From positions 3,523 through 67,522 of the forward strand of contig JAGVZE010000010.1 in NCBI GenBank assembly GCA_018302815.1: a stretch of 64,000 nucleotides of DNA, written 5' to 3'. This DNA comes from Candidatus Woesearchaeota archaeon (GTDB lineage: Archaea > Nanobdellota > Nanobdellia > Woesearchaeales > ARS49). Position numbers and translations under genes: made by a program. A model generated the notes under the pieces. That model saw only the letters and a list, made by a program, of their open reading frames with translations. It did not search any database and was not told where the DNA came from. Shown piece by piece: positions 2,076 to 59,928 of this stretch (positions within the stretch are counted from its first letter, which is position 1; each line of letters begins with the position of its first letter).

Positions 2076-2364
2076 GGCACCTCGTATTTGGCTTTTGTGT
2101 TGTGGTCAGCAAGAAATGAGGCAAGGATGAATTTTGTGCACAGAGCACAATGTCTTCGAAGAGCGCCCTGTGGCGCGTGCACGTTCCGATTAAATAATGA
2201 AGATGCTATGGTAGAAAGATTTAGGTAACAACCCATCATGAATTGTGTTTTGTTCCCAGCTTATCACTGAAAATAATCAAGCGAGTCAACCTCTTAAACT
2301 TTTGTGTTCACTGCTCAGTGTTTTTTACGCAATTAATTTAAAGAGCCTCATAGAAATAAAGAGC

Positions 2365-3042
2365 ATGAGACTTGGCGTGTTATATTCCGGAGGAAAAGAC
2401 TCGACGCTCGCGTTGATGAAAGCAAAAGAGCACCACGACGTCGTATGTCTAATAAGCATAATTTCTGAAAATAAAGAGAGCTACATGTTCCACACGCCAA
2501 ATATCGACGTGACAGAGCTGCAGGCGCAGGCTATGGGGCTTGCGCTTGTGCGCGTTACGACAAAAGGAGAGAAAGAAGCAGAACTCAAAGATTTGAAAAA
2601 AGCAATAAAAGACGCCATTAAACGGCATAAAATTGAGGGAATAGTCACAGGCGCTGTGCGTTCCACATACCAAGCGAGCAGAATACAAAAAATATGCCAA
2701 GAGCTCAAGCTCTGGGTCTTCAACCCGCTCTGGCTTAAAGACCAAGTCGAGCTGTTAACCGAAATTAGAGCATCCGGAATCAAAGCGATAATAGGCGGCG
2801 TATTCGCAGAAGCGCTGGACGAAAGCTTCCTTGGAAAAGACATAAGCACAGTCATACCGCAACTGGTTAAAATCGCAGGCGAACATCACATCAACCCAGC
2901 AGGAGAAGGCGGAGAAATAGAGACAACAACACTTGACGCTCCAGTTTTCAAGAAAAAAATAGTCATCGAGGAGTTTGAGAAGCGCTTCGAGAAAAATAGC
3001 GGCACGTTCATCATCAAAAAAGCGAGGCTTGCCGAGAAATGA
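2365..3042 (+). CDS. PP-loop ATP pyrophosphatase of the MJ0570/Dph6 (diphthine-ammonia ligase) family
   Basis: Starts MRLGVLYSGGKDSTLAL (SGGKDS PP-loop); ~225 aa typical of the archaeal MJ0570/Dph6 family. The upstream in-frame extension from 2245 was rejected as the N-terminus. Confidence 0.6.
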   Translation: MRLGVLYSGGKDSTLALMKAKEHHDVVCLISIISENKESYMFHTPNIDVTELQAQAMGLALVRVTTKGEKEAELKDLKKAIKDAIKRHKIEGIVTGAVRSTYQASRIQKICQELKLWVFNPLWLKDQVELLTEIRASGIKAIIGGVFAEALDESFLGKDISTVIPQLVKIAGEHHINPAGEGGEIETTTLDAPVFKKKIVIEEFEKRFEKNSGTFIIKKARLAEK

Positions 3043-7460: not shown

Positions 7461-8813
7461 CTAGAACTTCATCTGAGGACCGGCTTTCCTGCCGAGCTTC
7501 TTCATAAGCTTCTCAGGAGATTCGCCCTTTAACATCTTTATCATCTTCTTCGACTGCTTATACTGCTTAATAAGATCGCGAATGTCGCTTGTTGAGACTC
7601 CGGAACCTTTGCTGATACGCTCAATGCGTTGGGCGTCGAGCATCTCAGGGTCCTCTAATTCAGCTTTTGTCATACTGTTCATCGCGTGCTTCCACTTCTT
7701 GAGCTTGCCTTCCTGCACCTGAAGCGCTTCTTTTGGCATCGAAATGTTGCCAAAGCCAGGAATCATTTCCAAAACTTTGCCCAATGGGCCCATCTTCGAC
7801 ATCGCTTCCATCTGACTATAGAGGTCGATTAAATTGAATTCGCCCTTGAGAAGCTTTTTTTCTAGGTCTTTTGCTTCGTCTTCAGTTATGGCCTCTTTTG
7901 CCTTTTCAAGGAGCGCTTCGAGATCGCCCATGCCAAGCAAACGGCCGACAAAACCCTTCGGATTGAACTGCTCGAAATCATCGACACGCTCACCGACACC
8001 AATGAACTTGATAGGAGCTCCAGTCACAGCGCACGCGCTCAAAGCGCCACCGCCCTTCGCAGTACCATCCATCTTTGTGACGATAACGCCAGTGATAGCT
8101 CCTGCAGCGTGGAATGCAGAGGCTTGCTGCTGAGCGGCCTGACCGATATCAGCGGAAATCACAAGCAAAGCCTCATTGACATTCGCAGCCTCGTGAACAT
8201 TCTTGAGCTCTGCTATCAAATCAGCAGAAAGAGCGTCCCTTCCAGCAGTATCGATTATTAACAAGTCAAACTTCTTGAACTCAGGCTCGAAATGCCTGTA
8301 AATCTTGATAGGGTCTTTCTCGTCCTTTAAAATGAAGACTTGCGCATTAATCGCTTTTCCAACTTGCGAGAGTTGGTCCATCGCGGCAGGACGGTGCACG
8401 TCAAGACCTAGCAAAGCAACCTTTTTGCCTCGCTTCATAAAATATTTCGCGAGCTTTGCGGCAGTCGTGGTTTTACCTGAACCGAAAAGACCGATAAGCA
8501 TTATTTTAGAAAGACCTTTCTCTTCGATCTTAAGCTCTGACTTGTCACCGCCCAAAAACTTTGTCAATTCCTCATAAACGATGTTGACCAAATGCTCGCG
8601 CTTTGTAAGCGCGCCAGGAGTTTGCTCCTTTGTAATCCTGTCCTTGATTTTTTGCGTGAGGTCAAAAACAAGCTTCACGTTGACGTCTGATTGAAGAAGA
8701 GCGCGCTGGATGTCTTTTATAAGCTCATTGATGAGTTTTTCATCTACAAAAAGCGACTTCGCAATCTTTTGCAGAGTTCCTTTAAGACCCTCTGAAAGCT
8801 TCTCTAATACCAT
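7461..8813 (-). CDS. srp54: signal recognition particle protein SRP54
   Basis: N domain MVLEKLSEGLKGTLQKI is archaeal-style. G domain has GLFGSGKTTTAAKLAKY, DTAGR and TKMDG. Met-rich M domain at the C-terminus. Confidence 0.95.
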   Translation of the reverse strand: MVLEKLSEGLKGTLQKIAKSLFVDEKLINELIKDIQRALLQSDVNVKLVFDLTQKIKDRITKEQTPGALTKREHLVNIVYEELTKFLGGDKSELKIEEKGLSKIMLIGLFGSGKTTTAAKLAKYFMKRGKKVALLGLDVHRPAAMDQLSQVGKAINAQVFILKDEKDPIKIYRHFEPEFKKFDLLIIDTAGRDALSADLIAELKNVHEAANVNEALLVISADIGQAAQQQASAFHAAGAITGVIVTKMDGTAKGGGALSACAVTGAPIKFIGVGERVDDFEQFNPKGFVGRLLGMGDLEALLEKAKEAITEDEAKDLEKKLLKGEFNLIDLYSQMEAMSKMGPLGKVLEMIPGFGNISMPKEALQVQEGKLKKWKHAMNSMTKAELEDPEMLDAQRIERISKGSGVSTSDIRDLIKQYKQSKKMIKMLKGESPEKLMKKLGRKAGPQMKF

Positions 8814-20609: not shown

Positions 20610-21680
20610 ATGCGCATACTACACCTCGCCAAATACTACCCTCCAACAAAAGGAGGCATGGAAACCCACATCTCAACACTATGTGAAGAGCTCAGCTCAC
20701 AAGGACATGACGTCACATGCTACGCGTTCGGACAGGTGAAGGAAAACACAAAAGGAGTGAACGTAAAAATCTTCAAGAGCCTGTTCAAAACACCACCCTT
20801 CTCACCTGCTCTCCTATGGACTCTATTAACCAATCGAAATAAATTTGATATTGTACATGTACACATGCCAAACCCATGGGTTGAACTTTGCGCACTCATA
20901 GCAAAACCAAAAAAACTCGTCGCATCATACCATTCAGACATCATAGGCAAACGCGGAGCGTCGTTGTATTTGCCCTTCCAAAGAATTCTGCTTCGACGCG
21001 CTAACGCAATAATATCCGCATCAAAACAATATTCTCAAACATCCGACCAACTAAGGCGATTCCACTCAAAAATCACACTAATACCGTACGGGATAACTCC
21101 TTTAGCCATATCAGATACTCAATTGGTCAAAGAAATACGTTCTCGCTCAAAGGGCCCAATTTATCTTTTCGTCGGAAGACTAGTCCACTATAAGGGAGTT
21201 CGCTACCTGATAGAAGCTATGGGAAGCACCGATGGAACGCTCATAATTGTCGGAGATGGCCCCCTCAAAAAAGAGCTAGCCGATCTTGTGCGCTCTCTCA
21301 AACTCAGCGATAAGATTGTTTTTGCGCAAAACGTGACTGATGAGCAGCTGCCATCATTTTATGAAGCGTGCGACGTTTTTATCCTCCCCTCTATAAATCG
21401 AGCTGAAGGTTTTGGAATAGTACAACTAGAAGCGATGATGCGCGCAAAGCCAGTCATCAGCACAAGACTTGGAACAGGAACCGATGAGATCAACATTCAC
21501 GGTAAAACCGGACTCACAGTTGAACCTGAAAACCCAAAACAGCTATCAGACGCAATGAATACTCTTGACCGCGACCCCTTGCTAAGAATAGCTCTTGGAA
21601 AGGAAGCAAAGAAAAACGCGTCAAAATATAGCGCCTCAAGAATGACCCGCGATATTCTTGCTATTTATCGAACTATTTGA
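20610..21680 (+). CDS. glycosyltransferase family 4
   Basis: EGFGIVQLEAMMRAKPVIST motif; ~356 aa. Confidence 0.8.
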   Translation: MRILHLAKYYPPTKGGMETHISTLCEELSSQGHDVTCYAFGQVKENTKGVNVKIFKSLFKTPPFSPALLWTLLTNRNKFDIVHVHMPNPWVELCALIAKPKKLVASYHSDIIGKRGASLYLPFQRILLRRANAIISASKQYSQTSDQLRRFHSKITLIPYGITPLAISDTQLVKEIRSRSKGPIYLFVGRLVHYKGVRYLIEAMGSTDGTLIIVGDGPLKKELADLVRSLKLSDKIVFAQNVTDEQLPSFYEACDVFILPSINRAEGFGIVQLEAMMRAKPVISTRLGTGTDEINIHGKTGLTVEPENPKQLSDAMNTLDRDPLLRIALGKEAKKNASKYSASRMTRDILAIYRTI

Positions 21681-24236
21681 TTTCATACTAGAAAAATTAG
21701 AGCGCGAATTTGATTCTGGCGAACGCTCCCATTCTATTCTCCACACGAGTATCCGCTCAGGATCGAATTCCTCGTGGGCAAGAGAGAAACCATCGAACGC
21801 GCCCCCCACATAGAATCCGACAATCATACTGTTCACATATTCCTCGGACACTATCATCGACTTGAAGACGCCCTCGTCCTCAAAGACAATCAATGAATGC
21901 TCTGAAGGAGCATCATCATACAATCGTTCATATCTAGTCTCATTCATAATAATCACTACCCGTCTTGGATGGGTCTTTCCCTTCACCGCACCCACTTTTT
22001 CTGAATCGACCAAGAAATCCCCGCACATTAAATCAGCCTCATTCACAGGCCTGCACATCCTCAAAGGAGACACATATCCGTCAGGCGGCGCTATCTCCTG
22101 CGCAAACGCGTCCTCGTACAACTGCTCAGCGCCAGATTGGGACAAACCCAACTCTTCACTGATTCGCGATATCGCTTGTTCCTGCGGAATCTTCAGCACC
22201 AACTCACGCACGATGCCTAAAGTCTCGTTCCACTTCGATATTGTTGAGATTGACGGAATCACATCAAGGATATCCCTATTCATCAAAAAATACGCTTCAG
22301 GGGGAGCGCAATGCGTGAGATTAAGCAGATCACCAGCCGCGCGCTCATCCAAGATTTTTTTTGCGGTTTCTTCATCACTACGAAGAACTTCCTCAATAAC
22401 GTACCCCGCAGAAAGCCCTAACCGGGATTCTAACACCTGCAATCCATCATGACCTGCGCAGTCAATCATCCGAAACACATTCATCGCGAAAGATTCGTTA
22501 TCGGACAGAAGCGCCCTTGACATCCAATGAGCCACATCAGTAGGACCAGCATCAAGAACTGTGCCTCGCCTCGATGCGTATTGCCAAACATAACCAAAAT
22601 CCCACCACGTATTAATTATGCTAGCCCTGGACGTGTTGGCCTGAAACCACTCCCCTGTTTTTGCTATCGCATCATTCATCCTAGGCAAAGGCACAGTATC
22701 AGTATCAATCATTGAAACACCAACTGTTGAAGAGAGCGCCAAAAGAACCACGACACAAACAACACGCCGGGAATTTATGTCCAAACTGGAGAAAAAGTCA
22801 GCAGTCCAACGAGCCAATTTCGCGAAAGAAAACCCTGCCAATATGCACGCAGGCGGAGCGAGGAAAAACATAAAACGGTTCCCCTGCAGAGTCGGCAAGA
22901 AAAGAACAGCCATCCACGATAGGAAGAAAAGCTCAGCCGGCATCAAAGTACGACGAACGAGCCGCGCGCATAACATCACAAGCGCGGCAAAAACAAACCC
23001 TACAAACACCAACCCACCGAAATTTTCCACCCACACCGATACGCTTGGAGCCATCAACTCCATAACCGTCTCGTGGATTCCAGGCATCTTGTTCGTAAAC
23101 TGAAACTTCCTTAGAACCTTTCCAACATATCCGAACCACCATAAAAACGCCAGCGAGGCCACGCCCAACAGGGCAGCTAAAGACGCGCGAGTTATCTTAG
23201 ACTCTCTATCAGGCGCGCACCAAACTGAAAACGCGGAGTACGCCAAAAAAAATGCTGCCAAAACACCCAGCACAAAATACCAGCCTCCCCAGCTAAAACG
23301 CAGACCAACAAGAGCAAGGCAAGCAATCACGACTGCGGCCACCTTTTGAAGCACGCCTTTTCGCATAAACAAAACCACTCCAAGAAAGAAAATTAAAGAC
23401 AGAGGCATTATCACTATAGTAGTATCGGTAAAACCAGCCATATTCTGACGAAAAAAAAAAGGGTGCATCGCGAACAACAAAGACGCAAGGAAAGCCACAA
23501 TCCTATCTTGGAACCCAAGAAACGCGATAATAAATACCAGCACAACAGATATCATTCCTAAAAAGACAGGAAGATAAAATGCAGACTCCATCAATGACGA
23601 ATCTGAATCGAAGACGTTCCAAACTTTAAAGAAATACGCCTCGATGAACGGCAACAATGTGAACTCAGCTCCCACACCCTGCGGTTTTCGACGCAAGGAG
23701 TCGAATGGAACTTCATCCTTTAGCGTATCGCCCTGATGCCCTCGTTCCAACACGTTCCTTGCGTATCGAAGAAAATAGTACGCATCATACTCCAAAAGAT
23801 ATGGATGCCCCTCTTTTGCCTTGAACTTAGCCTTGTTTTCCTCAATCGCTGATTGAAGTGCGCCGCTTTGCTTTAGCTTAGCAAGAGTCTCTTTTATCTT
23901 TGGCCCCGCAATAGCGGAAATCTCGCCCCCGAGCAACTGAGGATACTGCGCTTGAATCTGACGCGTGACCTCATTTGAAACCGCGCCCTCTATCTGCTTT
24001 TCAAAAATCCCATCCATCACGCTCAAAGAGGCAGTCGAAGATAGTATCAAAGCGCACACGATAAGCGGAATCAAAATAAGCATCCAAAGCGCAGGCTCGA
24101 AAAACGGCTCGCGCTCTTTTTGAACCGGCTCATCTTTTACCTCCTCAGCTTTTTTTTGCTTTTCGAAAAACTCGCCCATGTTAAGATATTGACCCACTGA
24201 TTGATGAGCGTGCTTTTCAGGCAAGGACTGAGTCAT
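21636..24236 (-). CDS. aglB: oligosaccharyltransferase AglB (STT3 family)
   Basis: 866 aa; N-terminal multi-TM region and C-terminal periplasmic domain with WWDFGYVWQY (the WWDYG motif). Confidence 0.8.
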   Translation of the reverse strand: MTQSLPEKHAHQSVGQYLNMGEFFEKQKKAEEVKDEPVQKEREPFFEPALWMLILIPLIVCALILSSTASLSVMDGIFEKQIEGAVSNEVTRQIQAQYPQLLGGEISAIAGPKIKETLAKLKQSGALQSAIEENKAKFKAKEGHPYLLEYDAYYFLRYARNVLERGHQGDTLKDEVPFDSLRRKPQGVGAEFTLLPFIEAYFFKVWNVFDSDSSLMESAFYLPVFLGMISVVLVFIIAFLGFQDRIVAFLASLLFAMHPFFFRQNMAGFTDTTIVIMPLSLIFFLGVVLFMRKGVLQKVAAVVIACLALVGLRFSWGGWYFVLGVLAAFFLAYSAFSVWCAPDRESKITRASLAALLGVASLAFLWWFGYVGKVLRKFQFTNKMPGIHETVMELMAPSVSVWVENFGGLVFVGFVFAALVMLCARLVRRTLMPAELFFLSWMAVLFLPTLQGNRFMFFLAPPACILAGFSFAKLARWTADFFSSLDINSRRVVCVVVLLALSSTVGVSMIDTDTVPLPRMNDAIAKTGEWFQANTSRASIINTWWDFGYVWQYASRRGTVLDAGPTDVAHWMSRALLSDNESFAMNVFRMIDCAGHDGLQVLESRLGLSAGYVIEEVLRSDEETAKKILDERAAGDLLNLTHCAPPEAYFLMNRDILDVIPSISTISKWNETLGIVRELVLKIPQEQAISRISEELGLSQSGAEQLYEDAFAQEIAPPDGYVSPLRMCRPVNEADLMCGDFLVDSEKVGAVKGKTHPRRVVIIMNETRYERLYDDAPSEHSLIVFEDEGVFKSMIVSEEYVNSMIVGFYVGGAFDGFSLAHEEFDPERILVWRIEWERSPESNSRSNFSSMKSNSSINSKNIAGHS

Positions 24237-39772: not shown

Positions 39773-41689
39773 ATGGGGTTCAAACTGCACTCACGATTCT
39801 CGCCCGCAGGAGGGCAGCCGGAAACTATCAAAAAGCTTGTTGAAGGATTCAAACAGCGAAGCTGCCAAACCCTGCTTGGAATCACAGGAAGCGGAAAGAC
39901 TTTTGTGATGGCAAATGTTATCGACAAGGTTCAAAAGCCAACACTGGTCCTTGCCCACAACAAAACACTAGCAGCACAGCTTTACGCAGAACTCAAAGAC
40001 CTCTTTCCTGAGAATCGCGTCGAATACTTCATCAGCTACTACGACTACTACCAACCAGAAAGCTATCTGCCCACGACCGACACATACATCGAAAAGGATT
40101 CGAGCGTCAATGAGCAAATAGAAAAAATGAGACTCAAAGCGACATCAAGCCTTCTTTCACGCGATGACGTCATAATAGTCGCATCAATTAGCTGCATTTA
40201 CGGCCTTGGAGACCCAGGCAACTTCAAAGAACTATCCATCGAACTCAAAAAAGGAACAACGCTAAAACGCCAAGACCTGATCTCAAGCCTTGTACGCACG
40301 CAATATGAAAGAAACGATACTGCGCCCACCACAGGGCAATTCAGAGTACGAGGCGATGCGATAGACATCTATCCCGCGTATGACGACACGTTAATTCGCG
40401 TAGAACTCTTCGGCGACTCAATAGATAGGATAAGCGAACTGCACCCACTCACAAACGAAACCATCGCTTCACTAGAACACCTTCGAATCTTCCCAGCCAA
40501 ACAATTCGTTGTTCCAGAAGAAAAACAGCAACGCGCAATAGAAGAAATCAAATCAGAGCTCGAAGACTGGGCGCCCAACCTGCCAGAACTTGAAAGGCAG
40601 CGCCTCACAAAGCGAGTCAAATACGACCTTGAAATGCTAAATGAACTTGGCTATTGCTCAGGAATCGAAAACTACTCGAGGCATTTCGATGGCAGAAAAC
40701 AAGGAGAGCCGCCGTTCGTGCTTCTCGACTACTTTCCAGAGGATTTCCTTCTAATAATCGATGAAAGCCATCAAACAATACCCCAATCAAAAGCAATGTA
40801 CAAAGGAGACTATTCACGCAAGAAAAATCTCGTGGACTTTGGATTCCGCCTTCCCTGCGCGTTTGACAACCGCCCACTCAAATTTGAGGAGTTCGAGCAA
40901 TACTTCAAGAATGTACTCTTTGTCAGCGCGACGCCAGCAGAATATGAACTGCAAAAATCCAACCAGATAGTCGAACTAATCATCAGGCCGACAGGACTTC
41001 TTGACCCGCTCGTGGAAGTGCGTCCAATAACGGGACAAGTCAAGGACCTAATCGGCGAAATAAACAAAACAACAGCAAAGAACGAACGCGTCATCGTCAC
41101 AACACTAACCAAAAGAATGGCTGAGGACCTAACCGATCATCTCGCGAAAGCAGACATCAAAGTAAGATACCTGCACAGCGACATCGACAGCCTCGAACGC
41201 ATAGAACTCATACGTGCGCTTCGCGCCAAAGAATTCGACGTCCTTGTCGGAATAAATCTACTGCGAGAAGGACTTGATATTCCTGAAGTATCCCTTGTCG
41301 CAATACTTGACGCTGACAAAGAAGGATTCCTTCGAAACGAACGAAGCCTAATTCAAACAATCGGAAGAGCCGCGCGCAACGTCAATGGAAGAGTCATACT
41401 CTATGCAGACGTCATGACTGAATCAATGCAGAGCGCCATGGCGATAACAAAACGCAGGCGAATGGCACAAGAACAGTTCAACAAAAAGAACGGCATAACC
41501 CCACAGACAATAATAAAATCAGTCGCGAAAAAAACACGCGAGCTCAAAGGAACAAAACACATGTCAAAAACAGACATCAACAGAATGCTTGTCCAGCTGG
41601 AAGCGGATATGCGAACGGCAGCAGAACAACTCAACTTCGAAAAAGCCATACAAATCCGCGACCAACTGCGCGAACTTAGAGGTGAATGA
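39773..41689 (+). CDS. uvrB: excinuclease ABC subunit B
   Basis: QTLLGITGSGKTF helicase motif I, beta-hairpin region, C-terminal UVR domain (AIQIRDQLRELRG). Confidence 0.95.
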   Translation: MGFKLHSRFSPAGGQPETIKKLVEGFKQRSCQTLLGITGSGKTFVMANVIDKVQKPTLVLAHNKTLAAQLYAELKDLFPENRVEYFISYYDYYQPESYLPTTDTYIEKDSSVNEQIEKMRLKATSSLLSRDDVIIVASISCIYGLGDPGNFKELSIELKKGTTLKRQDLISSLVRTQYERNDTAPTTGQFRVRGDAIDIYPAYDDTLIRVELFGDSIDRISELHPLTNETIASLEHLRIFPAKQFVVPEEKQQRAIEEIKSELEDWAPNLPELERQRLTKRVKYDLEMLNELGYCSGIENYSRHFDGRKQGEPPFVLLDYFPEDFLLIIDESHQTIPQSKAMYKGDYSRKKNLVDFGFRLPCAFDNRPLKFEEFEQYFKNVLFVSATPAEYELQKSNQIVELIIRPTGLLDPLVEVRPITGQVKDLIGEINKTTAKNERVIVTTLTKRMAEDLTDHLAKADIKVRYLHSDIDSLERIELIRALRAKEFDVLVGINLLREGLDIPEVSLVAILDADKEGFLRNERSLIQTIGRAARNVNGRVILYADVMTESMQSAMAITKRRRMAQEQFNKKNGITPQTIIKSVAKKTRELKGTKHMSKTDINRMLVQLEADMRTAAEQLNFEKAIQIRDQLRELRGE

Positions 41690-41690
41690 A

Positions 41691-44540
41691 ATGAACGACA
41701 ACCTGATAGTTCGAGGAGCACGAGAACACAATCTTAAAAATATCAGCGTCGAGATGCCCCGCAACAAATTCATCGTAATCACCGGACTTTCAGGAAGCGG
41801 AAAATCCACACTCGCGTTCGATACAATCTACGCAGAAGGACAGCGAAGGTATGTTGAATCGCTTTCAGCATACGCGCGCCAGTTCTTGGGCCTTATGAAT
41901 AAGCCCGATGTCGATTCAATCGAAGGACTAAGCCCGGCGATCAGCATTGAGCAGAAAACAACCTCAAAGAATCCACGCTCGACAGTAGGAACAGTCACAG
42001 AAATATACGATTACCTGCGCCTTCTGTTCGCAAGAGTTGGAACAATGCACTGCCCCGAATGCAATAGCTCGCTTCGACCGCAAAGCGCGGAAAACATAGT
42101 CAACCTCATAATGTCGGACGCGGGAAAAGAACTGCTAATCCTCGCGCCAATCATCAGAGGAATGAAAGGAACACACGAAAAACTGTTCGAAGACGCAAAA
42201 AAAGACGGATTCGCCCGAGTGCGCATAGACGGACAAGTAATCCGCACAGATGAAACGCCTCCAAAACTCGAACGATACGAAAAACACTGGATGGAAGTCG
42301 TCATCGACCACGTCAAAATAAATGAAGAAAATAGGCACAGGCTAACAGAAGCTGTCGAAAGCGCACTGCACAAAGGAAAAGGCACGCTGATAGCAATAGA
42401 CGCGAAAGATGACAAGACAAAACTCAAAGAAATAGAGCGCTCATCCAACGAAACAGTCTTCACAAGCTTTGGAGCCTGCCCTGACCACCCTCACATCGTG
42501 TTCGAACAACTTGAACCGCGAATGTTCTCATTCAACAGCCCATTTGGCGCGTGCCAATCCTGCCTTGGACTTGGAGAGCACCTTGAGATATCGCCTGACC
42601 TTGTGATTCCCAACAAAGATAAGAGCATAATGGACGGCGCGATAATAGTCTATGGAAAAATGGATCTGCAGTGGAGAGCTCAACAAATAGGCGCTGTCGG
42701 CAAGAAATTCGGATTCGACCTTTTCACCCCCATAAAGAATTTCACCAAAAAACAACTTGACGTGCTGCTCTTTGGAACAAGCGAACCCATCACAGGACGA
42801 TGGAGCACAGGACAACAAATGAATTTCGATAGCGGATGGGAAGGAGTCATTCCGCAAACGATGCGCCTTTACAAACAGACAGAATCGGACTGGAGAAAAC
42901 AAGAGATTGAAAAATTCATGATAAGCAATCCTTGCACTGTCTGCAAAGGAAAACGCCTCAAAGACACCATTCTCTCTGTCAAGATAGCAGACAAATCAAT
43001 AATAGATGTAACCGACCTCTCTGTCGAACGCGCTCTAGCGTATTTCAAAGAACTTCCTTCGAAACTTGGCGAAAAAGACCTGTTCATCGCAAAACAAGTG
43101 CTCAAAGAAATAAACGATCGACTAGGATTCTTGCACAACGTAGGACTTGGCTATCTGAACCTCTCGCGAAGCGCGCGCACGCTATCAGGCGGAGAAGCGC
43201 AGCGAATAAGGCTTGCGACGCAAATAGGCTCGAACCTCATGGGAGTCCTATACGTGCTTGACGAACCTAGCATCGGCCTGCACCAGCGCGACAACGAAAA
43301 GCTCATAAATACACTGCACAGGCTGCGCGACCTTGGAAACACACTCATCGTCGTCGAACACGATGAAGACACTATGCGCTCCGCAGACTATCTAATCGAT
43401 ATGGGCCCTGGAGCCGGAGAACACGGAGGCCACATCTGCGCGAGAGGAAAACCATCAGAAGTGATGAAAAACAAAAAGTCCCTCACAGGACAATATCTTG
43501 CCGGCTTAAAAAAGATTGAATCTCCGAAGGAACGAAGAAAGCCAACTGATCATCTAACAATAACAGGCGCTAGCGAGAACAACCTCAAAAATGTAAGCGT
43601 GAAATTCCCCCTCGGAGTTCTCTGCGGAATCACAGGCGTTTCAGGAAGCGGAAAATCAACACTCATGAACCAGACATTAATACCTGTCTTGCAAAAACAT
43701 TTCGGCGCAACACCAGGAAAAATCGGAAAATACCAAGACCTCAAGATACCATCGACAATTGACAATGTAATAGTCATAGACCAAGAGCCAATCGGCAGAA
43801 CCCCTCGCTCGAACCCCGCGACGTATACAAAACTCTTTGACGAAATACGCGCCATATTCGCAGACACAAAAGAAGCACGCGCCAGAGGATACAAAGAAGG
43901 CAGATTCAGCTTCAACGTCAAAGGAGGACGATGCGAGAGATGCCAGGGCGATGGAGTCATCAAGATAGAGATGAATTTCCTGCCTGATGTGTACGTTCCT
44001 TGCGAAGACTGCAAGGAAAAACGATACAACAAGGATACGTTGTCTATCACTTACAAGGACAAATGCATCGCAGATGTTTTGGAACTAAGCGTAGAAGAAT
44101 CTATTAAGTTCTTTGAGAATCACCCTTCAATAATGCGCAAACTCCAAACGCTCTTTGATGTCGGGCTTGGCTATATCAAACTTGGCCAAAGCTCCACAAC
44201 ACTTTCAGGCGGAGAATCCCAGCGCATAAAACTAACGCGCGAACTTGCTAAAAGCAAACGAGGAAGCACTCTTTACCTGCTTGATGAACCCACAACAGGG
44301 CTTCATTTCGAGGACGTTCGAAAACTAATCACTGTGCTGAACAGGCTTGTCGAGAAAGGCAATTCAGTCTTTGTAATCGAACACAACCTTGACGTCATAA
44401 AATGCTGCGATCACATCATCGACCTTGGACCTGAAGGCGGAGACAAAGGAGGGGTTGTAGTGGCGCAAGGAACCCCTGAAGAACTATGCGAATATGAACA
44501 ATCCTACACCGCAAAATTCCTTAAAAAATTGTTGAAATGA
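41691..44540 (+). CDS. uvrA: excinuclease ABC subunit A
   Basis: MNDNLIVRGAREHNLKNI start; two ABC modules (GLSGSGKSTLAFD, GVSGSGKSTLMNQ); zinc-finger cysteines. The ORF-track N-terminal extension from 41589 was rejected. Confidence 0.95.
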   Translation: MNDNLIVRGAREHNLKNISVEMPRNKFIVITGLSGSGKSTLAFDTIYAEGQRRYVESLSAYARQFLGLMNKPDVDSIEGLSPAISIEQKTTSKNPRSTVGTVTEIYDYLRLLFARVGTMHCPECNSSLRPQSAENIVNLIMSDAGKELLILAPIIRGMKGTHEKLFEDAKKDGFARVRIDGQVIRTDETPPKLERYEKHWMEVVIDHVKINEENRHRLTEAVESALHKGKGTLIAIDAKDDKTKLKEIERSSNETVFTSFGACPDHPHIVFEQLEPRMFSFNSPFGACQSCLGLGEHLEISPDLVIPNKDKSIMDGAIIVYGKMDLQWRAQQIGAVGKKFGFDLFTPIKNFTKKQLDVLLFGTSEPITGRWSTGQQMNFDSGWEGVIPQTMRLYKQTESDWRKQEIEKFMISNPCTVCKGKRLKDTILSVKIADKSIIDVTDLSVERALAYFKELPSKLGEKDLFIAKQVLKEINDRLGFLHNVGLGYLNLSRSARTLSGGEAQRIRLATQIGSNLMGVLYVLDEPSIGLHQRDNEKLINTLHRLRDLGNTLIVVEHDEDTMRSADYLIDMGPGAGEHGGHICARGKPSEVMKNKKSLTGQYLAGLKKIESPKERRKPTDHLTITGASENNLKNVSVKFPLGVLCGITGVSGSGKSTLMNQTLIPVLQKHFGATPGKIGKYQDLKIPSTIDNVIVIDQEPIGRTPRSNPATYTKLFDEIRAIFADTKEARARGYKEGRFSFNVKGGRCERCQGDGVIKIEMNFLPDVYVPCEDCKEKRYNKDTLSITYKDKCIADVLELSVEESIKFFENHPSIMRKLQTLFDVGLGYIKLGQSSTTLSGGESQRIKLTRELAKSKRGSTLYLLDEPTTGLHFEDVRKLITVLNRLVEKGNSVFVIEHNLDVIKCCDHIIDLGPEGGDKGGVVVAQGTPEELCEYEQSYTAKFLKKLLK

Positions 44541-44549
44541 GCCAACCAA

Positions 44550-46142
44550 ATGATCAATTCCATCAATCACACTGTCAATCCAAAAACGATACCGACTGAG
44601 CCAGGAGTCTATCTGTTCAAAGATGAATCAGGCACGATAATTTATGTTGGCAAAGCGCGAAATCTGCGAAACAGAGTATCATCCTACTTCAACAACACAG
44701 AAAAGTCGGTGAAAACTCAAGTGCTTGTCAAGCGAATCCACAGCGCAGAATATTTCATAGTGGATAATGAAACAGAAGCCCTTCTGCTTGAAAACAAATT
44801 AATCAAGCAACACAGCCCGAAATACAACATCAGCCTAAAAGACGCGAAAACTTATGCGTACATACAGCTAACAGACGAGAAGTTTGCGCGAATACTATCT
44901 TCAAGAAAGCCCGGCAAAGACGGCACGTTCTTTGGACCATATGTCGATGGAACCGCCCGCCACGAACTTGTCCAACTATCAATTCGACTGTTCAAACTTC
45001 GATCTTGCAAAAAACTTCCAAACAGAGCGTGCCTCAACTACCACATCGGCCTTTGCACAGCGCCCTGCATCAAAGCCGTGAGCGAAACACAGTATTTTGA
45101 ACAAGTGAGCGAAGCAAAAGAATTCCTCAAAGGCAACACAAAAGCCATAACTGAAAAACTAACTGTGGAGATGAAAGAAGCGTCAGATTCGCAAAAGTTC
45201 GAACTCGCGCTTGAAAAAAAGCGGCAGATTGATGCAATAGCCTCTCTGCACGAAAAACAGAAAGTAGACACTCTTAAAAACTACGACCAAGACGTCATCG
45301 TCCTGCTTGAGAACGACGAAAATGCAATCATTGAACACTTCTCAATCAAGAAAGGAGTAATATCAGGTAAGCACGAATTCAGATTCGAAAAACAAGAGGA
45401 CCTGCTCGAATCATTCATTAAATTGTACTATTCCGGAAATCTAATACCCCGCGAAATAATCTTAAACAAAGCCGCGTGGGCGGACAATACTGAGAAAAAC
45501 GCAATCGAATCATACCTATCACACCTGCGAAAAGGAAAAGTCGAACTACACGTGCCTGAACGAGGAGAGAAAGCAGGACTCGTACGGCTCGCTGAAAAGA
45601 ACGCCGCGCTCGCGCTTGAAAACACCACACTAAAAGAACTGCAAGAAACGCTCATATTACCTCGCCTGCCAAGAGTGATAGAATGCTTTGACATCAGCAA
45701 CCTAGGAACGCAAGATATCGTAGCAGGAATGACCCAATGGGTTGACGGCAAACCAAACAAGCCAGGCTATCGCAAATTCGAAATTCGCACAGTTATAGGA
45801 AAAAACGATGATTTCGCAAGCATGCGCGAAGTCATACACAGAAGATACCAGCGCCTATCTCAAGAGAATGCGCAATTCCCTGACTTGATAATAATCGATG
45901 GCGGCAAAGGCCAGCTTGACTCGGCGCTATTCAGCCTCGGAGAACTCGGATTGTCAATACCAATAATCGCTCTTGCCAAACAAGAAGAAGAGATTTACAC
46001 ACCACACGAAGAGTTTCCGAAGAAATTTGATAAAAATAGCACAGTGATGCTTCTTTTGCGTCAGATACGCGACAGTGTGCATAACTTCGCACTAAGCTAC
46101 AACCGCAAAAAACGACAAATGCGCCTAAGAAACGACGCTTAA
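44550..46142 (+). CDS. uvrC: excinuclease ABC subunit C
   Basis: GIY-YIG N-terminus (GVYLFKDESGTIIYVGKARNLRNR), UVR domain and a C-terminal endonuclease domain. Confidence 0.95.
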   Translation: MINSINHTVNPKTIPTEPGVYLFKDESGTIIYVGKARNLRNRVSSYFNNTEKSVKTQVLVKRIHSAEYFIVDNETEALLLENKLIKQHSPKYNISLKDAKTYAYIQLTDEKFARILSSRKPGKDGTFFGPYVDGTARHELVQLSIRLFKLRSCKKLPNRACLNYHIGLCTAPCIKAVSETQYFEQVSEAKEFLKGNTKAITEKLTVEMKEASDSQKFELALEKKRQIDAIASLHEKQKVDTLKNYDQDVIVLLENDENAIIEHFSIKKGVISGKHEFRFEKQEDLLESFIKLYYSGNLIPREIILNKAAWADNTEKNAIESYLSHLRKGKVELHVPERGEKAGLVRLAEKNAALALENTTLKELQETLILPRLPRVIECFDISNLGTQDIVAGMTQWVDGKPNKPGYRKFEIRTVIGKNDDFASMREVIHRRYQRLSQENAQFPDLIIIDGGKGQLDSALFSLGELGLSIPIIALAKQEEEIYTPHEEFPKKFDKNSTVMLLLRQIRDSVHNFALSYNRKKRQMRLRNDA

Positions 46143-55691: not shown

Positions 55692-56705
55692 TTATAAAGG
55701 TTTGGGGTAGAACCGGCCGTGTTTTTTCCCTTCAGCAAGATATTTGAACAGCCCCATTCGAAGCACAAGACCGTTGCCCGCCTGCGGAATATAGTGCATT
55801 CTTGGATCGTCGTCTATTTCGTCAGCGACCTCTTGAAGCTGCGAGATTCTGCCATCAATTGGAAGCGGATGAAGAATTTTAGCGGATGGTTTGACACGCT
55901 CGATGAATTTCGCATCCATGCGGCACGTCGGCTTTAAGGAACTCACCCGCTTCGTTATTTCCTTATCTTCATATCTCTCTTCCTGGAAGCGAGTCTGATA
56001 AAAGAAATCGACATCTCCTGCGGGAATTTCGGCCAGAGACTCTGCCCTCACAATCGAATTTCCCCTGCCAGCAATGAAACGTGAAAGATATCCATCAGGT
56101 ATCTGGATGATTTTCGGCGCGACCAAATAAAGCTTCAACCCTTTGTAAATGGAAAGCATCTTGACAAGCGAATGAACGGTTCGACCGTGCAATAAATCAC
56201 CAACGATCGCTCCCACTTTGCCATCGGCTCCGCCCAAATCCCGGTCAATAGTGTAAATATCGAGCAATGCCTGCGTTGGATGCTCACCATCGCCATCGCC
56301 CGCATTTATTATCGAAGTCAATGAATTCATAGGAAGATATTCAACCGCTTTTGCCGCGCTGCCTTTCTCTTTATGACGCAAAACAATCGCGAAAGGACCA
56401 TATGAATCAAGCACACGGATCGTGTGCTTTAGCGATTCGCCCTTAACACCGGATGAGAAACTTGCGGCGCTCTCCGAACTAACCACGCTTCCTGCGAGCT
56501 TGTGAACAGAAGTCTCGAAACTAAAGCGCGTCCTCGTACTGGGCTCATAGAAAACGCTGTACACAACGTGACCCATCAAAGGATTGTCCGAGCATAGCCA
56601 CCTATTGCCCCGCTTATAATAATCGGCGTAACCAAAAATCTCATTCATAGAACCCGGATCGTCAATAAACTGGTCCGCTCCGATTATGTGCTTCAAGCCG
56701 CTCAT
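55692..56705 (-). CDS. pyrB: aspartate carbamoyltransferase catalytic subunit
   Basis: STRTR, AGDGDGEHPTQALLD, HGRTVHSL, HPLP and a PQAGNG tail, colinear with E. coli PyrB; no pyrI adjacent. Confidence 0.8.
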   Translation of the reverse strand: MSGLKHIIGADQFIDDPGSMNEIFGYADYYKRGNRWLCSDNPLMGHVVYSVFYEPSTRTRFSFETSVHKLAGSVVSSESAASFSSGVKGESLKHTIRVLDSYGPFAIVLRHKEKGSAAKAVEYLPMNSLTSIINAGDGDGEHPTQALLDIYTIDRDLGGADGKVGAIVGDLLHGRTVHSLVKMLSIYKGLKLYLVAPKIIQIPDGYLSRFIAGRGNSIVRAESLAEIPAGDVDFFYQTRFQEERYEDKEITKRVSSLKPTCRMDAKFIERVKPSAKILHPLPIDGRISQLQEVADEIDDDPRMHYIPQAGNGLVLRMGLFKYLAEGKKHGRFYPKPL

Positions 56706-57370
56706 TGTTTCACCTGCGGAAAAATAAGAGCGTCAATGTATTTTTTGATGTCTTCGAATACCGCTGTTGGTGGACGATTGCCATTGATCATGTGAATATT
56801 GTGGTCTTTAAACTCACCAACCATATCTTTATAGATTCCATCCAAACGTTTTTGCAGCTCATATTTAGTATCGAACCCATCTCCGCAAAGACCCATGCGC
56901 TTTAATCGTACGTCAGCAGGAGTGTCTATAAAGAAAGTTATGTCTGGCACAGGCATACCTTTGTGCGCTTGCCAAAACCTCTCTTTTGAGACTCCGTTGG
57001 ATACCTGGTAAGCCCAAGTCGCAAAATAATATCTATCGAGCGCGACAATCGTTCCAGCGTTCATGTTGGGCAAAATAGTATTCTGCACGTGCGTTTTTCT
57101 ATCACCAACGAAAAGCTCGAAAAAAGTTTCATTATCGAACTCTCGATTCTCAAGACGCCTCCTAATCTCAAGACCCTGCGGAGTGTTGTGCGGCTCACGG
57201 CCTCGCAGAACCTGGATAAACTTATTTGTGTCCGCAGGGTGATCGAACAAATAATCGCACAAGAGCCTGTGCTGAGTGCTTTTACCACACTTATCAGGGC
57301 CGTCGAAAACTATGAAATAGCCGCGCATTGGACGACTCGACTCATTCATTGGAAGCCCTCTTATCTTCAT
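56702..57370 (-). CDS. tmk: thymidylate kinase
   Basis: FIVFDGPDKCGKST P-loop, REP, DRYYFATWAYQ (DRYxxSxxAYQ). Start may be the internal Met at 57328. Confidence 0.8.
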   Translation of the reverse strand: MKIRGLPMNESSRPMRGYFIVFDGPDKCGKSTQHRLLCDYLFDHPADTNKFIQVLRGREPHNTPQGLEIRRRLENREFDNETFFELFVGDRKTHVQNTILPNMNAGTIVALDRYYFATWAYQVSNGVSKERFWQAHKGMPVPDITFFIDTPADVRLKRMGLCGDGFDTKYELQKRLDGIYKDMVGEFKDHNIHMINGNRPPTAVFEDIKKYIDALIFPQVKQ

Positions 57371-59060
57371 CGAGCTGGCGCTTTTGCTTTTCTTCCGCGC
57401 GCTCCTCGGCTTTTTGCCTTCCCATCGAAGAATCCGCCATCACAGGACGAATGTATTTCGCGAATCTTGGAAGCACACGCTCAATCTCGCGATAAACGTC
57501 GCGGAATAGAGTCTTATAAGATGTGTGACCTGGCTCAGGAGTCCTAAGCTCTATGACATACTGCGCCTGCCTTGGATGGAACTCATAAATGCTTCTGCCC
57601 AAATGCCCCATTGCAGGGATGTAACAGGCATCATGTGGGAACTCATTTCTTACTTCACGATGCAGCGCACTTGTTTGCTCCATCAAACGCTCATAATCTT
57701 TCTTAATTTCTTCAAGACCCTTAGCATCTTCTACAAACTCAGGATAGGCAAAGCCCAAATCCGCAGTTATCTCCTGTTTTAGCTGGGTTCCAACGCGCTG
57801 ACGCTTCACATCACGCCAAGCGCCGTTGTCCATAACAAACTCGAAAAGGAAACGGCCGAGTTTCGTGCCCCTTAGCATCAAATCGTGCTCGCCTCTTTTC
57901 TCAAGATACGTTTTGAACACTTCATCTTTTTGCTCACTGGTAAAACCGCTAACCTGCGAGCGAATGCCTTCGAAAGAAATGCCGTTGCCAAATTCATAAA
58001 ATATGCCAGTAAGAAGCAAATCCTCAAGACCAGGAGTATGCTCTATCAACTTGACACGCTGGACCGCTCTGTCGCCGCGATGATATTCCGTCTCTGGCGC
58101 TCGAAGAGCAAAAGACGCCAAATTGAAAAGACCCTGCGTCGCATTACTGAAATAATCATTTTGCTGCACGTGTTTTAGAAGGCCGGGCGTCACCTTGATA
58201 CCCTCTTCAAGAATAGCAGAGCCTATGACCCGCACTTCTTCAAGTTCGTGGCTTAGCATCTGTGACACATGGCTCTCAGCAGTTCTTGTCGGCCACGTTG
58301 CGCCCATCGCGGTCGTCGAACCCATCGGCAGGAAATAACGCATGATATCGAACGTCGCGGCATTAAGAGTCTGCTTGTATGCGACCTGCCCTTTGAACTT
58401 TGAACGATCAAGGACATTCGCTTCAAGCCAGCCGCGCACAACAGGCTCCCATCTTTTGTAAGCGCTCATCAATTCATCATTGTTTGCCGCTATAGACGCG
58501 CCAAATCTCGAACTTTGCAAGCGAGGAGGAATAATGACTGCGATATCGTTGAACGGAACATACCTTGTGCTCTTCTCCTGATAATCACCAAGCTCGGGGT
58601 CAGGCATCTGGATGAAATTCGTAGCCACCTGGCTTACGCCCTCCATCGCAACGCGAAGCTTGTCAGCGTCTTTTAGCGACTTATGGCCGAACTTGACGCC
58701 CCACTTGCTAAGAAAATCCTCTGAAACAGTGAAAAAGTAATCGAGCACTGCAAGCTTGCTTTGTTGGATCGCATCAGCTGCCTGCTCAACAGTGACCATT
58801 TTTTCTGCAGGCCACTCTTTCTTCTCGACCTTCTTTTTCATGCTATCAAAAACTTCCAAGAAACGTTCACGCATCGTCAGATCGGACCTGCTGTATTGGC
58901 CAACCAAATGTGCCCAAACCGGAAAAGGCATATTCCCAGTCGGACAATAAACATTACGGTCGGTATTCGTGAAAAAATGATTTAGCACGACCTGCTCGGG
59001 CTCAGTATATTCTCTTCTTCCCTGCATTGGCACCAAAGTTCCAGTAGTCATAATCGTCAC
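57342..59060 (-). CDS. large (572 aa) ThyX-related protein (flavin-dependent thymidylate synthase-like, divergent)
   Basis: FLFEFVMDNGAWRDVKRQRV aligns to ThyX FTFHV......RQWFRHR with H->Q. An upstream QEKSTRY resembles the S-x-RY block. Sits between dcd and tmk. Roughly twice normal ThyX length. Confidence 0.4.
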   Translation of the reverse strand: MTIMTTGTLVPMQGRREYTEPEQVVLNHFFTNTDRNVYCPTGNMPFPVWAHLVGQYSRSDLTMRERFLEVFDSMKKKVEKKEWPAEKMVTVEQAADAIQQSKLAVLDYFFTVSEDFLSKWGVKFGHKSLKDADKLRVAMEGVSQVATNFIQMPDPELGDYQEKSTRYVPFNDIAVIIPPRLQSSRFGASIAANNDELMSAYKRWEPVVRGWLEANVLDRSKFKGQVAYKQTLNAATFDIMRYFLPMGSTTAMGATWPTRTAESHVSQMLSHELEEVRVIGSAILEEGIKVTPGLLKHVQQNDYFSNATQGLFNLASFALRAPETEYHRGDRAVQRVKLIEHTPGLEDLLLTGIFYEFGNGISFEGIRSQVSGFTSEQKDEVFKTYLEKRGEHDLMLRGTKLGRFLFEFVMDNGAWRDVKRQRVGTQLKQEITADLGFAYPEFVEDAKGLEEIKKDYERLMEQTSALHREVRNEFPHDACYIPAMGHLGRSIYEFHPRQAQYVIELRTPEPGHTSYKTLFRDVYREIERVLPRFAKYIRPVMADSSMGRQKAEERAEEKQKRQLDEDKRASNE

Positions 59061-59133
59061 CTCTTTAGCTCAGCAACCTGAGCCTTGCACTCCATTAAAT
59101 GGTTATTACAACCAAAAATGCAACAGTGTTGCA

Positions 59134-59928
59134 CTATTTGCCCCTAACTTCCCTATCTTTCCACATCTTTGGAAGCATAGCCTCAGGAGTCCATTTCGCC
59201 TTGAGCTCACCTAGCGATTCTGACACTTGATATTTCCCTCCCGCATTGGAATAATCTTTTTGCTGAATGGGTTCTACGCCAAAAAACACAATCTGCGCGA
59301 TTCTTCTCCCAACGACAAGCGGAATAGTATAATGCTGAGAGTTATTTGTTATCTCCATCGTCCAACGATTGATATAGCCCACATCGCCCCAACCCGCGCA
59401 CTTGCATACCGCTATGAAGTTACGACCCATCGATGAACGCGCCTTCATCATCGTAGTAACATCAATCTTTCCCCCAATATATTCATCAGTATGTGCAAGA
59501 ATAGTCTCCCCTGGACTTATCAAAATCACACTATCCTCTGGTGAGATATTATCCCCGAATGCATCAGACCAATTCGCATTTTTTGCTTCGGTTCGCAAAG
59601 TCTGCGCTTCATGAAGCTGCCAAATAGTCCTAACGTGACGTTCATCGTACGGATTAAGAACACGCCTATCCGCGTGGCCTGGTTTCACCTCACGATAAAA
59701 ATACTGGCCCAAAGTCACATCATAACTAGATGTGGCAAGATTCTCACGCTTGAACGGGTCTATCACCACAGAACCTTCACGTATGTGCCTTAAAATCGCA
59801 GTGTCGGACAAACAAGACCGCTCAGAGAGAACACCTTCTAGTCCGAGCGATTTAGAAAGCTCTACCGAAGAATAGTTCTTCTTCAATTCACCTAACAGCT
59901 CGCCTAATTCCTCTTTTGACCAAGCCAT
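59134..59928 (-). CDS. dcd: dCTP deaminase (dUTPase fold) with ~45-aa N-terminal extension
   Basis: LSDTAILRHIREGSVVIDPF...SSYDVTLG matches the Dcd N-terminus. C-terminal GWGDVGY/nucleotide-binding blocks. The true start is possibly internal. Confidence 0.75.
   Translation of the reverse strand: MAWSKEELGELLGELKKNYSSVELSKSLGLEGVLSERSCLSDTAILRHIREGSVVIDPFKRENLATSSYDVTLGQYFYREVKPGHADRRVLNPYDERHVRTIWQLHEAQTLRTEAKNANWSDAFGDNISPEDSVILISPGETILAHTDEYIGGKIDVTTMMKARSSMGRNFIAVCKCAGWGDVGYINRWTMEITNNSQHYTIPLVVGRRIAQIVFFGVEPIQQKDYSNAGGKYQVSESLGELKAKWTPEAMLPKMWKDREVRGK

Follow-up and report, generated by a model that had tools for sequence, protein, structure and literature searches.

Canonical flavin-dependent thymidylate synthases (ThyX or FDTS; Pfam Thy1, PF02511), among them TM0449 of Thermotoga maritima, Rv2754c of Mycobacterium tuberculosis and PBCV-1 A674R, are homotetramers. 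PolB, a C5-methylase of uridine monophosphate (UMP) and deoxyuridine monophosphate (dUMP) in polyoxin biosynthesis (PDB 4p5a and 4p5b), has the ThyX fold and flavin-dependent C5 methylation, and is a single-domain protein with the entire motif in one chain. The Thy1 protein of Thermus thermophilus (PDB 6j61) is enlarged by an appended C-terminal region but, at 270 amino acids (aa), has an extension too short for a second ThyX domain, unlike the protein described here. Duplicated ThyX proteins were noted as uncharacterised by Valas & Bourne in 2009, who reported that the Chloroflexi carrying them have only this form (PMC3224940); that remark is the sole mention found in the searchable literature on tandem, fused or duplicated ThyX. 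Here we describe a two-domain protein encoded in a 64-kb stretch of DNA from a Candidatus Woesearchaeota archaeon (the window, meaning the whole stretch analysed), where it lies in a minus-strand gene cluster at positions 55692–59928. Its gene, of 572 or 569 codons depending on the start, quite probably specifies a duplicated-domain ThyX that works as a flavin-dependent thymidylate synthase.

The canonical ThyX tetramer has 222 symmetry (PMC3498832), and each of its active sites is assembled from three subunits (PMC6514825). Subunit A contributes the RHR motif and R199 (M. tuberculosis (Mtb) numbering; R174 in T. maritima (Tm)), subunit B contributes S71 and R190 (Tm T55 and R165), and subunit C contributes Q103, S105, R107 and the lid residue Y108 (Tm E86, S88, R90 and Y91). 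The RHR residues form hydrogen bonds with the adenosine monophosphate (AMP) phosphate, the ribityl group and the flavin mononucleotide (FMN) phosphate (PMC6514825). Each half of the window protein resembles the canonical enzyme in fold, the protein as a whole matches its set of contacts to flavin adenine dinucleotide (FAD) and dUMP, and a like position in the pathway is expected from the gene context. It differs in having two domains in a chain of about 570 residues, a signature split between them, Gln for the His of RHR, a prediction of two complete sites per assembly in place of four, and no NCBIfam match.

Fold of the two halves

The tandem-domain ThyX gene occupies 57342–59060 on the minus strand, giving 572 aa from a GTG codon at 59060; public gene calls start at an ATG at 59051 and yield a 569-aa ThyX. 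The N-terminal ThyX domain comprises residues 1–320 (58101–59060), and the C-terminal ThyX domain, supported by the model, Foldseek matches, Pfam matches of relatives and an hhalign map, comprises residues 326–545 (57426–58085). Following it is a charged C-terminal stretch (residues 546–572; 57345–57425), helical over residues 546–571 in the AlphaFold2 model, which holds the family-invariant R548 and E552 in a G-R-x-x-Q-E-E motif and to which nothing in the T. maritima ThyX (220 residues) corresponds.

The N half matches Pfam Thy1 over residues 92–292 with 44.2 bits against a cut-off of 24.8 bits (E = 2.4e-11), so that the PF02511 search proposed in an earlier note on this DNA does return a significant match. 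Homologous C halves, which align end to end with that of the window protein, also pass the Thy1 model, with up to 90 bits; for one member of the same subclade (P0009) the C half scores E = 1.9e-10, and distant bacterial members reach E = 1.7e-25. With phmmer, the whole protein found no match in the PDB, and a family profile was therefore needed. Using such a profile of 25 sequences (A1), the N half matches M. tuberculosis ThyX (PDB 3gwc; E = 9e-9) and the C half matches T. maritima ThyX weakly (E about 0.1).

Structure prediction gave a confident full-chain AlphaFold2 model (predicted local distance difference test (pLDDT) score of 91, predicted template-modelling (pTM) score of 0.89), with which all 25 PDB matches found by Foldseek at E ≤ 0.001 are ThyX. 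A separate model of residues 326–572, representing the C half, has a pLDDT of 92.7 and superposes on T. maritima ThyX with a target-normalised TM score of 0.69–0.74 over about 211–224 aligned columns in Foldseek; its top 50 matches are all ThyX enzymes or the ThyX homolog PolB. Because the protein's own full-chain and C-half models match ThyX structures, the presence of two ThyX folds in one chain is confirmed for the window protein itself at the level of these predicted models. Compared directly by BLASTP and hhalign, the two halves show no detectable similarity, and the duplication is detectable through profiles and structure only.

The tandem, pseudo-duplicated ThyX fold suggested in the earlier note is thus upheld, by an N half above the Thy1 threshold and a C-half model that matches ThyX structures. 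Its choice of the C-terminal segment as the ThyX match holds in part: the C-half model does fit ThyX, but the significant profile match belongs to the N half, the C half reaching only E = 0.04. Likewise, the V......R...RxR portion of the C-terminal pattern it gave is exact, whereas F.F.V is off by one residue.

Division of the active site between the halves

Residues were mapped by hhalign of TM0449 to the profile of each half, using a TM0449 sequence that was verified against PDB 1kq4 (219/220 identical). In the N half, H126 and S128 correspond to Tm H53 and T55; E162, S164, R166 and Y167 to Tm E86, S88, R90 and Y91; D238 and R241 to Tm E144 and R147; and R259 to Tm R165. Located here is the E-K-S-T-R-Y segment (residues 162–167; 58560–58577, translation confirmed), the dUMP-binding loop with its Tyr lid. 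The RHR position of this half is taken by D154-P155-E156, and no Arg stands at the R174 position. In the C half, R416 and D417 correspond to Tm R74 and Q75, R420-Q421-R422 to Tm R78-H79-R80, R497 to Tm R165 and R506 to Tm R174, with H512 two residues past the H178 position. The flavin- and dUMP-binding motif of this half reads R-D-V-K-R-Q-R (residues 416–422; 57795–57815, translation confirmed), with Gln for the canonical His, and the half lacks both SxRY and an R147 equivalent. K-S-T-R-Y occupies residues 163–167, and R-Q-R occupies residues 420–422 within FLFEFVMDNGAWRDVKRQR.

Neither domain carries a contiguous RHRxxSxxxxSxR(Y) signature: R-Q-R in the C half is not followed by SxRY, and S-T-R-Y in the N half follows D-P-E. 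Taken over the whole chain, the residues contacting FAD and dUMP (Tm T55, R78, R80, E86, S88, R90, Y91, R147, R165 and R174) are all present once, spread over the two halves, and H79 is replaced by Q421. In a sample of 105 sequences (25 from A1 and 80 genome loci), S128, E162, S164, R166, D238, R241, R416, D417, R420, R422, R506 and Y515 are invariant, and Y167 and H512 are each found in 102. The complementary retention of SxRY in the N half and of RxR with the R174 equivalent in the C half holds in all 105. Apart from the R165 equivalent, every residue assigned to a role is fully or almost fully conserved in just one of the halves. The earlier reading of the S-T-R-Y block as the dUMP-binding block agrees with this conservation, its Ser and Arg being invariant and its Tyr present in 102 of 105.

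Comparing these maps with the published three-subunit site, we assign the A role to the C half and the B and C roles to the N half, an arrangement that would follow if the halves had kept complementary parts of the active site after duplication. The C half, as A, would hold the FAD phosphates and ribityl group and the dUMP phosphate through the R-x-R of RHR, the R174 equivalent and H512. The N half would, as B, provide the S/T55-type and R165-type FAD contacts and, as C, the E-x-S-x-R-Y substrate loop, the Tyr lid and the R147 equivalent. On the residue mapping, a homodimer that imitates the canonical tetramer but holds two complete active sites and not four is somewhat favoured. Two chains would form a pseudo-tetramer in the canonical 222 arrangement with the C halves on a diagonal; under that symmetry, two sites would each draw on one C half for the A role and on both N halves for B and C, and the other two, lacking RHR and R174, would be degenerate. 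With reduced flavin and methylene-tetrahydrofolate, the complete sites would methylate dUMP at C5.

The Gln of the RQR variant is an exception in the family: position 421 is His in 96 of the 105 sequences and Gln in nine, which fall into two lineages of 26–32% mutual identity. The substitution reported in the earlier note is thus real in the C half (Q421) but confined to a minority, most of the family having RHR. The subclade of the window protein (n = 6, the five relatives being 49–64% identical to it) is further marked by an insertion of two residues (PDPELG) and by Glu (E156) at the third RHR position of the N half, and keeps all other mapped catalytic residues. The second, independent lineage (L004, L012 and L015) reads RQRGD, has STRAL in which the Tyr lid is gone, has GID for GH, and has lost H512. 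Since Gln can form hydrogen bonds as His does, the change is most likely a conservative, tolerated swap at a hydrogen-bonding position that has become fixed in a Woesearchaeota subclade.

A different meaning for RQR, which we consider unlikely, is an altered way of holding or supplying the flavin, with an exchangeable or FMN-type flavin and a separate reductase, in a tandem family that would be a two-site ThyX whose degenerate sites are free for another role. A looser grip on the cofactor is possible because both the His that binds FAD phosphate and, in the window clade, the residual Arg of the N half are lost, and a hint in this direction comes from the second RQR lineage, in which the Tyr lid is lost as well and a reduced nicotinamide adenine dinucleotide phosphate (NADPH)-dependent FMN reductase is encoded two genes from the tandem thyX.

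The N-half counterpart of RHR varies in its own right. In the region of residues 153–155 (58596–58604), the Arg at the third RHR position is kept in 88 of the 105 tandem ThyX proteins, and R-P-R or R-G-R is found in the N half of some actinobacterial lineages. The 'dead' site of the N half is degenerate to differing degrees among lineages.

Gene neighbourhood and family

Four co-directional open reading frames (ORFs) on the minus strand make up the cluster, in the order dcd, the ThyX gene, tmk and pyrB, as the earlier note had it, and profiles back their identities. Upstream of thyX is dcd (59134–59928), encoding a 264-aa member of the deoxycytidine triphosphate (dCTP) deaminase family (PF22769, E = 2.1e-31; TIGR02274 exactly at its cut-off). 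Among solved structures, its closest relative is an M. jannaschii enzyme that is bifunctional and forms dUMP (PDB 1ogh; E = 1.8e-11), and an N-terminal extension of about 39 aa lies outside its DCD domain. Downstream is tmk (56702–57370), for deoxythymidine monophosphate (dTMP) kinase (PF02223, E = 4.2e-29; TIGR00041 above its cut-off), which in public gene calls spans 56702–57349 (215 aa) and overlaps the thyX stop by 8 nucleotides. The last gene, pyrB (55692–56705), encodes the catalytic chain of aspartate carbamoyltransferase (TIGR00670, 242 bits against a cut-off of 237); the start of pyrB and the stop of tmk share 4 nucleotides (ATGA). Beginning at the dcd stop and reaching into the 73-nucleotide dcd–thyX spacer is an 8-bp hairpin with a T-run (59117–59135, minus strand), a consensus match only, which could partly uncouple transcription of dcd from that of thyX–tmk–pyrB. 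The promoter and terminator scan used a sigma-70 model and is uninformative for an archaeon.

Within this arrangement, dUMP would probably come directly from the adjacent dCTP deaminase, possibly of the dUMP-forming bifunctional type, and dTMP would pass to the downstream, translationally overlapping dTMP kinase. Such a DCD, if bifunctional, would make a separate dUTPase unnecessary. In every close relative examined, thyX–tmk adjoins a gene for a dUMP-producing enzyme, either dcd or dCMP (deoxycytidine monophosphate) deaminase. The order dcd–thyX–tmk is kept, with thyX and tmk overlapping, in the close relatives P0007 and P0005, and in P0012 a kinase–dCMP deaminase fusion is divergent from thyX–tmk–cmk. 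The dcd beside thyX in close relatives is of a different, longer type (374–383 aa; DCD_N, DCD and DCD_C). At the P0005 locus, the gene after thyX (L083, 9710–10930) encodes a 406-aa protein with a faint thymidylate-kinase match, possibly a fusion or else a tmk that has diverged. In the second RQR lineage, a 7-kb stretch of L004 (4886–11918) contains tmk, thyX, a FolC-like Mur ligase, the NADPH-dependent FMN reductase, serine hydroxymethyltransferase and a kinase–dCMP deaminase fusion, and in L012 the neighbours of the ThyX gene were confirmed to include tmk and the FolC-like ligase; both RQR lineages thus lie in gene contexts for dTMP synthesis.

The adjacency of pyrB is particular to the window's own contigs: the gene is absent from the position after tmk in P0007, P0005 and P0012. 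It was therefore rejected as part of the functional unit and, the adjacency not being conserved, probably lies outside it. Neither the window ORFs of at least 150 aa nor the genes called in the 10 kb to each side of thyX include pyrI or another pyr gene, in line with the description of pyrB as an orphan in the earlier note.

An NCBI entry from a Candidatus Woesearchaeota archaeon, named 'FAD-dependent thymidylate synthase', shows 100% identity to the window protein, and 10 contigs belonging to several independent assemblies encode this very sequence. The protein has 46 full-length relatives; searching the A1 profile through a word index added a single new protein (P0047). Taking one genome per species, at least 585 loci encode long-form relatives, of which 80 were kept for analysis. 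The hosts are DPANN archaea, Patescibacteria, Armatimonadota, NC10, Acidimicrobiia, Solirubrobacterales, Chloroflexus and Chloroploca, and Sorangium cellulosum. A bacterial long-form profile matched at least 5,701 clusters at E ≤ 1e-30, and an exhaustive hidden Markov model search gave 1,901 representatives of 50%-identity clusters at the same threshold. Among these, the best 150 are 469–741 aa long and mostly match over both halves, and entries with the tandem architecture, where named, are almost always called ThyX. The protein is thus not 'unusually large', as it had been described: the two-domain form is common, accounting for 1,901 representative clusters, and ThyX is its routine annotation.

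The Chloroflexi proteins with a duplicated domain (PMC3224940) share both architecture and split motifs with the window protein. Those of Chloroflexus (L076) and Chloroploca (L041) align with its residues 18–560 and 18–572, respectively, at 25–27% identity, and have RHR, Asp for His at the H53 equivalent and, in the N half, Arg where the third RHR residue would be. Unlike them, the window protein belongs to a branch of DPANN and the candidate phyla radiation and has RQR, E156 and the PDPELG insertion. If the report that such Chloroflexi have only this form is right, a tandem ThyX with split motifs must be a competent thymidylate synthase.

The ThyX of Chlamydia trachomatis, of about 529 aa, may be a tandem protein; no Chlamydia appears among the names of ten tandem representatives of 527–531 aa. 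This enzyme (CT632) has been expressed and assayed as ThyX (PMC3498832). A tandem ThyX of 530 aa (P0291) is also present in the transcriptome of the glaucophyte alga Gloeochaete wittrockiana (MMETSP/EukProt), as either a eukaryotic or plastid-related copy or else bacterial contamination.

Elsewhere in the window, archaeal markers include diphthamide synthase (2245–3042), SRP54 (7461–8813) and AglB/STT3 (21636–24236). In these otherwise archaeal surroundings stands a complete bacterial-type excision-repair set, UvrB–UvrA–UvrC (39773–46142, plus strand). A large glycosylation region (14912–37225) holds several GT2 and GT4 glycosyltransferases, radical SAM/SPASM proteins, AglB and a flippase-like protein; after the glycosylation genes come a PAPS-reductase-family protein with an EF-Tu-like GTPase, resembling a CysD/CysN pair, an ABC-2 transporter and two sulfatases, and sulfated glycans are a possible product of the region. 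The 64-kb window contains no tRNA genes.

Enzymatic role and alternative readings

The activity that we infer is thymidylate synthesis, as the earlier note had predicted: the dUMP source and tmk are kept beside thyX in relatives, and the dUMP-contact residues are conserved. A search of the 64-kb window, with a ThyA query validated against the PDB, found no thyA-like and no second thyX-like ORF. Several points weigh against this reading or parts of it. Taken alone, the C half of the window protein scores a sub-threshold 14.1 bits against Pfam Thy1 (E = 0.04), and no NCBIfam family matches the protein at E ≤ 0.01, so that no curated ThyX model recognises it there. The residue maps come from statistically weak hhalign alignments (E = 3e-4 and 5e-5, with probabilities of 17% and 41%) and lean on the agreement of motifs and on the structure matches. 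The R165 equivalent is kept in 91 of 105 C halves and 69 of 105 N halves, which a simple assignment of roles does not predict. The oligomeric state and the number of sites proposed above derive from the residue mapping. Across the family His79 varies little, and its replacement by Gln might weaken FAD binding; in the window subclade, the N half is also without the third-position Arg of RHR, which 88 of 105 relatives retain. The searchable literature contains no biochemically characterised tandem ThyX, and the search for a further thymidylate synthase covers the 64-kb window.

It is improbable that the protein is a ThyX-fold enzyme acting on another substrate or making another product, such as a hydroxymethylase or a PolB-like C5-methylase of UMP or dCMP. 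PolB does share the fold and is among the structural matches (PDB 4p5b), but it matches no better than genuine ThyX and belongs to an antibiotic-biosynthesis context, as opposed to dcd and tmk. The universal replacement of Tm Q75 by D417 and the change of RHR to RQR would suit a shift in specificity, and the tandem class is known from sequence and models; set against this, the mapped dUMP contacts (the equivalents of S88, R90, Y91, R147, R78 and R174) are all conserved, a dUMP-producing gene and dTMP kinase flank thyX in every close relative examined, and Chloroflexi are reported to have only the tandem form (Valas & Bourne 2009).

It is quite improbable that the protein is a catalytically weakened or dispensable paralog, like the atypical ThyX of Corynebacterium glutamicum, with thymidylate provided by salvage or another enzyme. 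All other mapped catalytic residues are kept in the six sequences of the RQR clade, and such retention at 49–64% identity argues for purifying selection on the active site; the link with dcd and tmk is also conserved, and the window holds no other thymidylate synthase. Consistent with weakening are the loss of the RHR His in the C half and of every RHR Arg in the N half, as well as the titles of PDB entries 3ge9 and 3fnn, which describe a ThyX not required for dTMP synthesis. Dependence on salvage, which is common among DPANN archaea whose genomes are reduced, is a general circumstance that would also fit a weakened paralog.

An assembly or annotation artefact joining two adjacent thyX genes, for which the double length and nothing beyond it speaks, has a practically negligible probability and was rejected, given the identical protein on 10 contigs from several independent assemblies, the same architecture in 1,901 representative clusters, halves that are dissimilar in sequence with complementary motifs, and a confident single-chain model (pTM 0.89).

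For the window, a working thymidylate synthase of the duplicated-domain type means that the gene is what databases already call it. Its length is typical of its subfamily, which is large, little studied and already annotated and in which it is an unremarkable member with a minor lineage-specific motif variant. The tandem ThyX family is very large and reportedly provides the sole thymidylate synthase in some phyla, and in the literature found it is recorded only as uncharacterised. ThyX is an antibacterial drug target whose mechanism needs active sites built from three subunits. A natural fusion that sorts the residues into non-equivalent halves could act as a built-in heterodimer system, in which single mutations would test the role of each subunit, as is impossible in a homotetramer.

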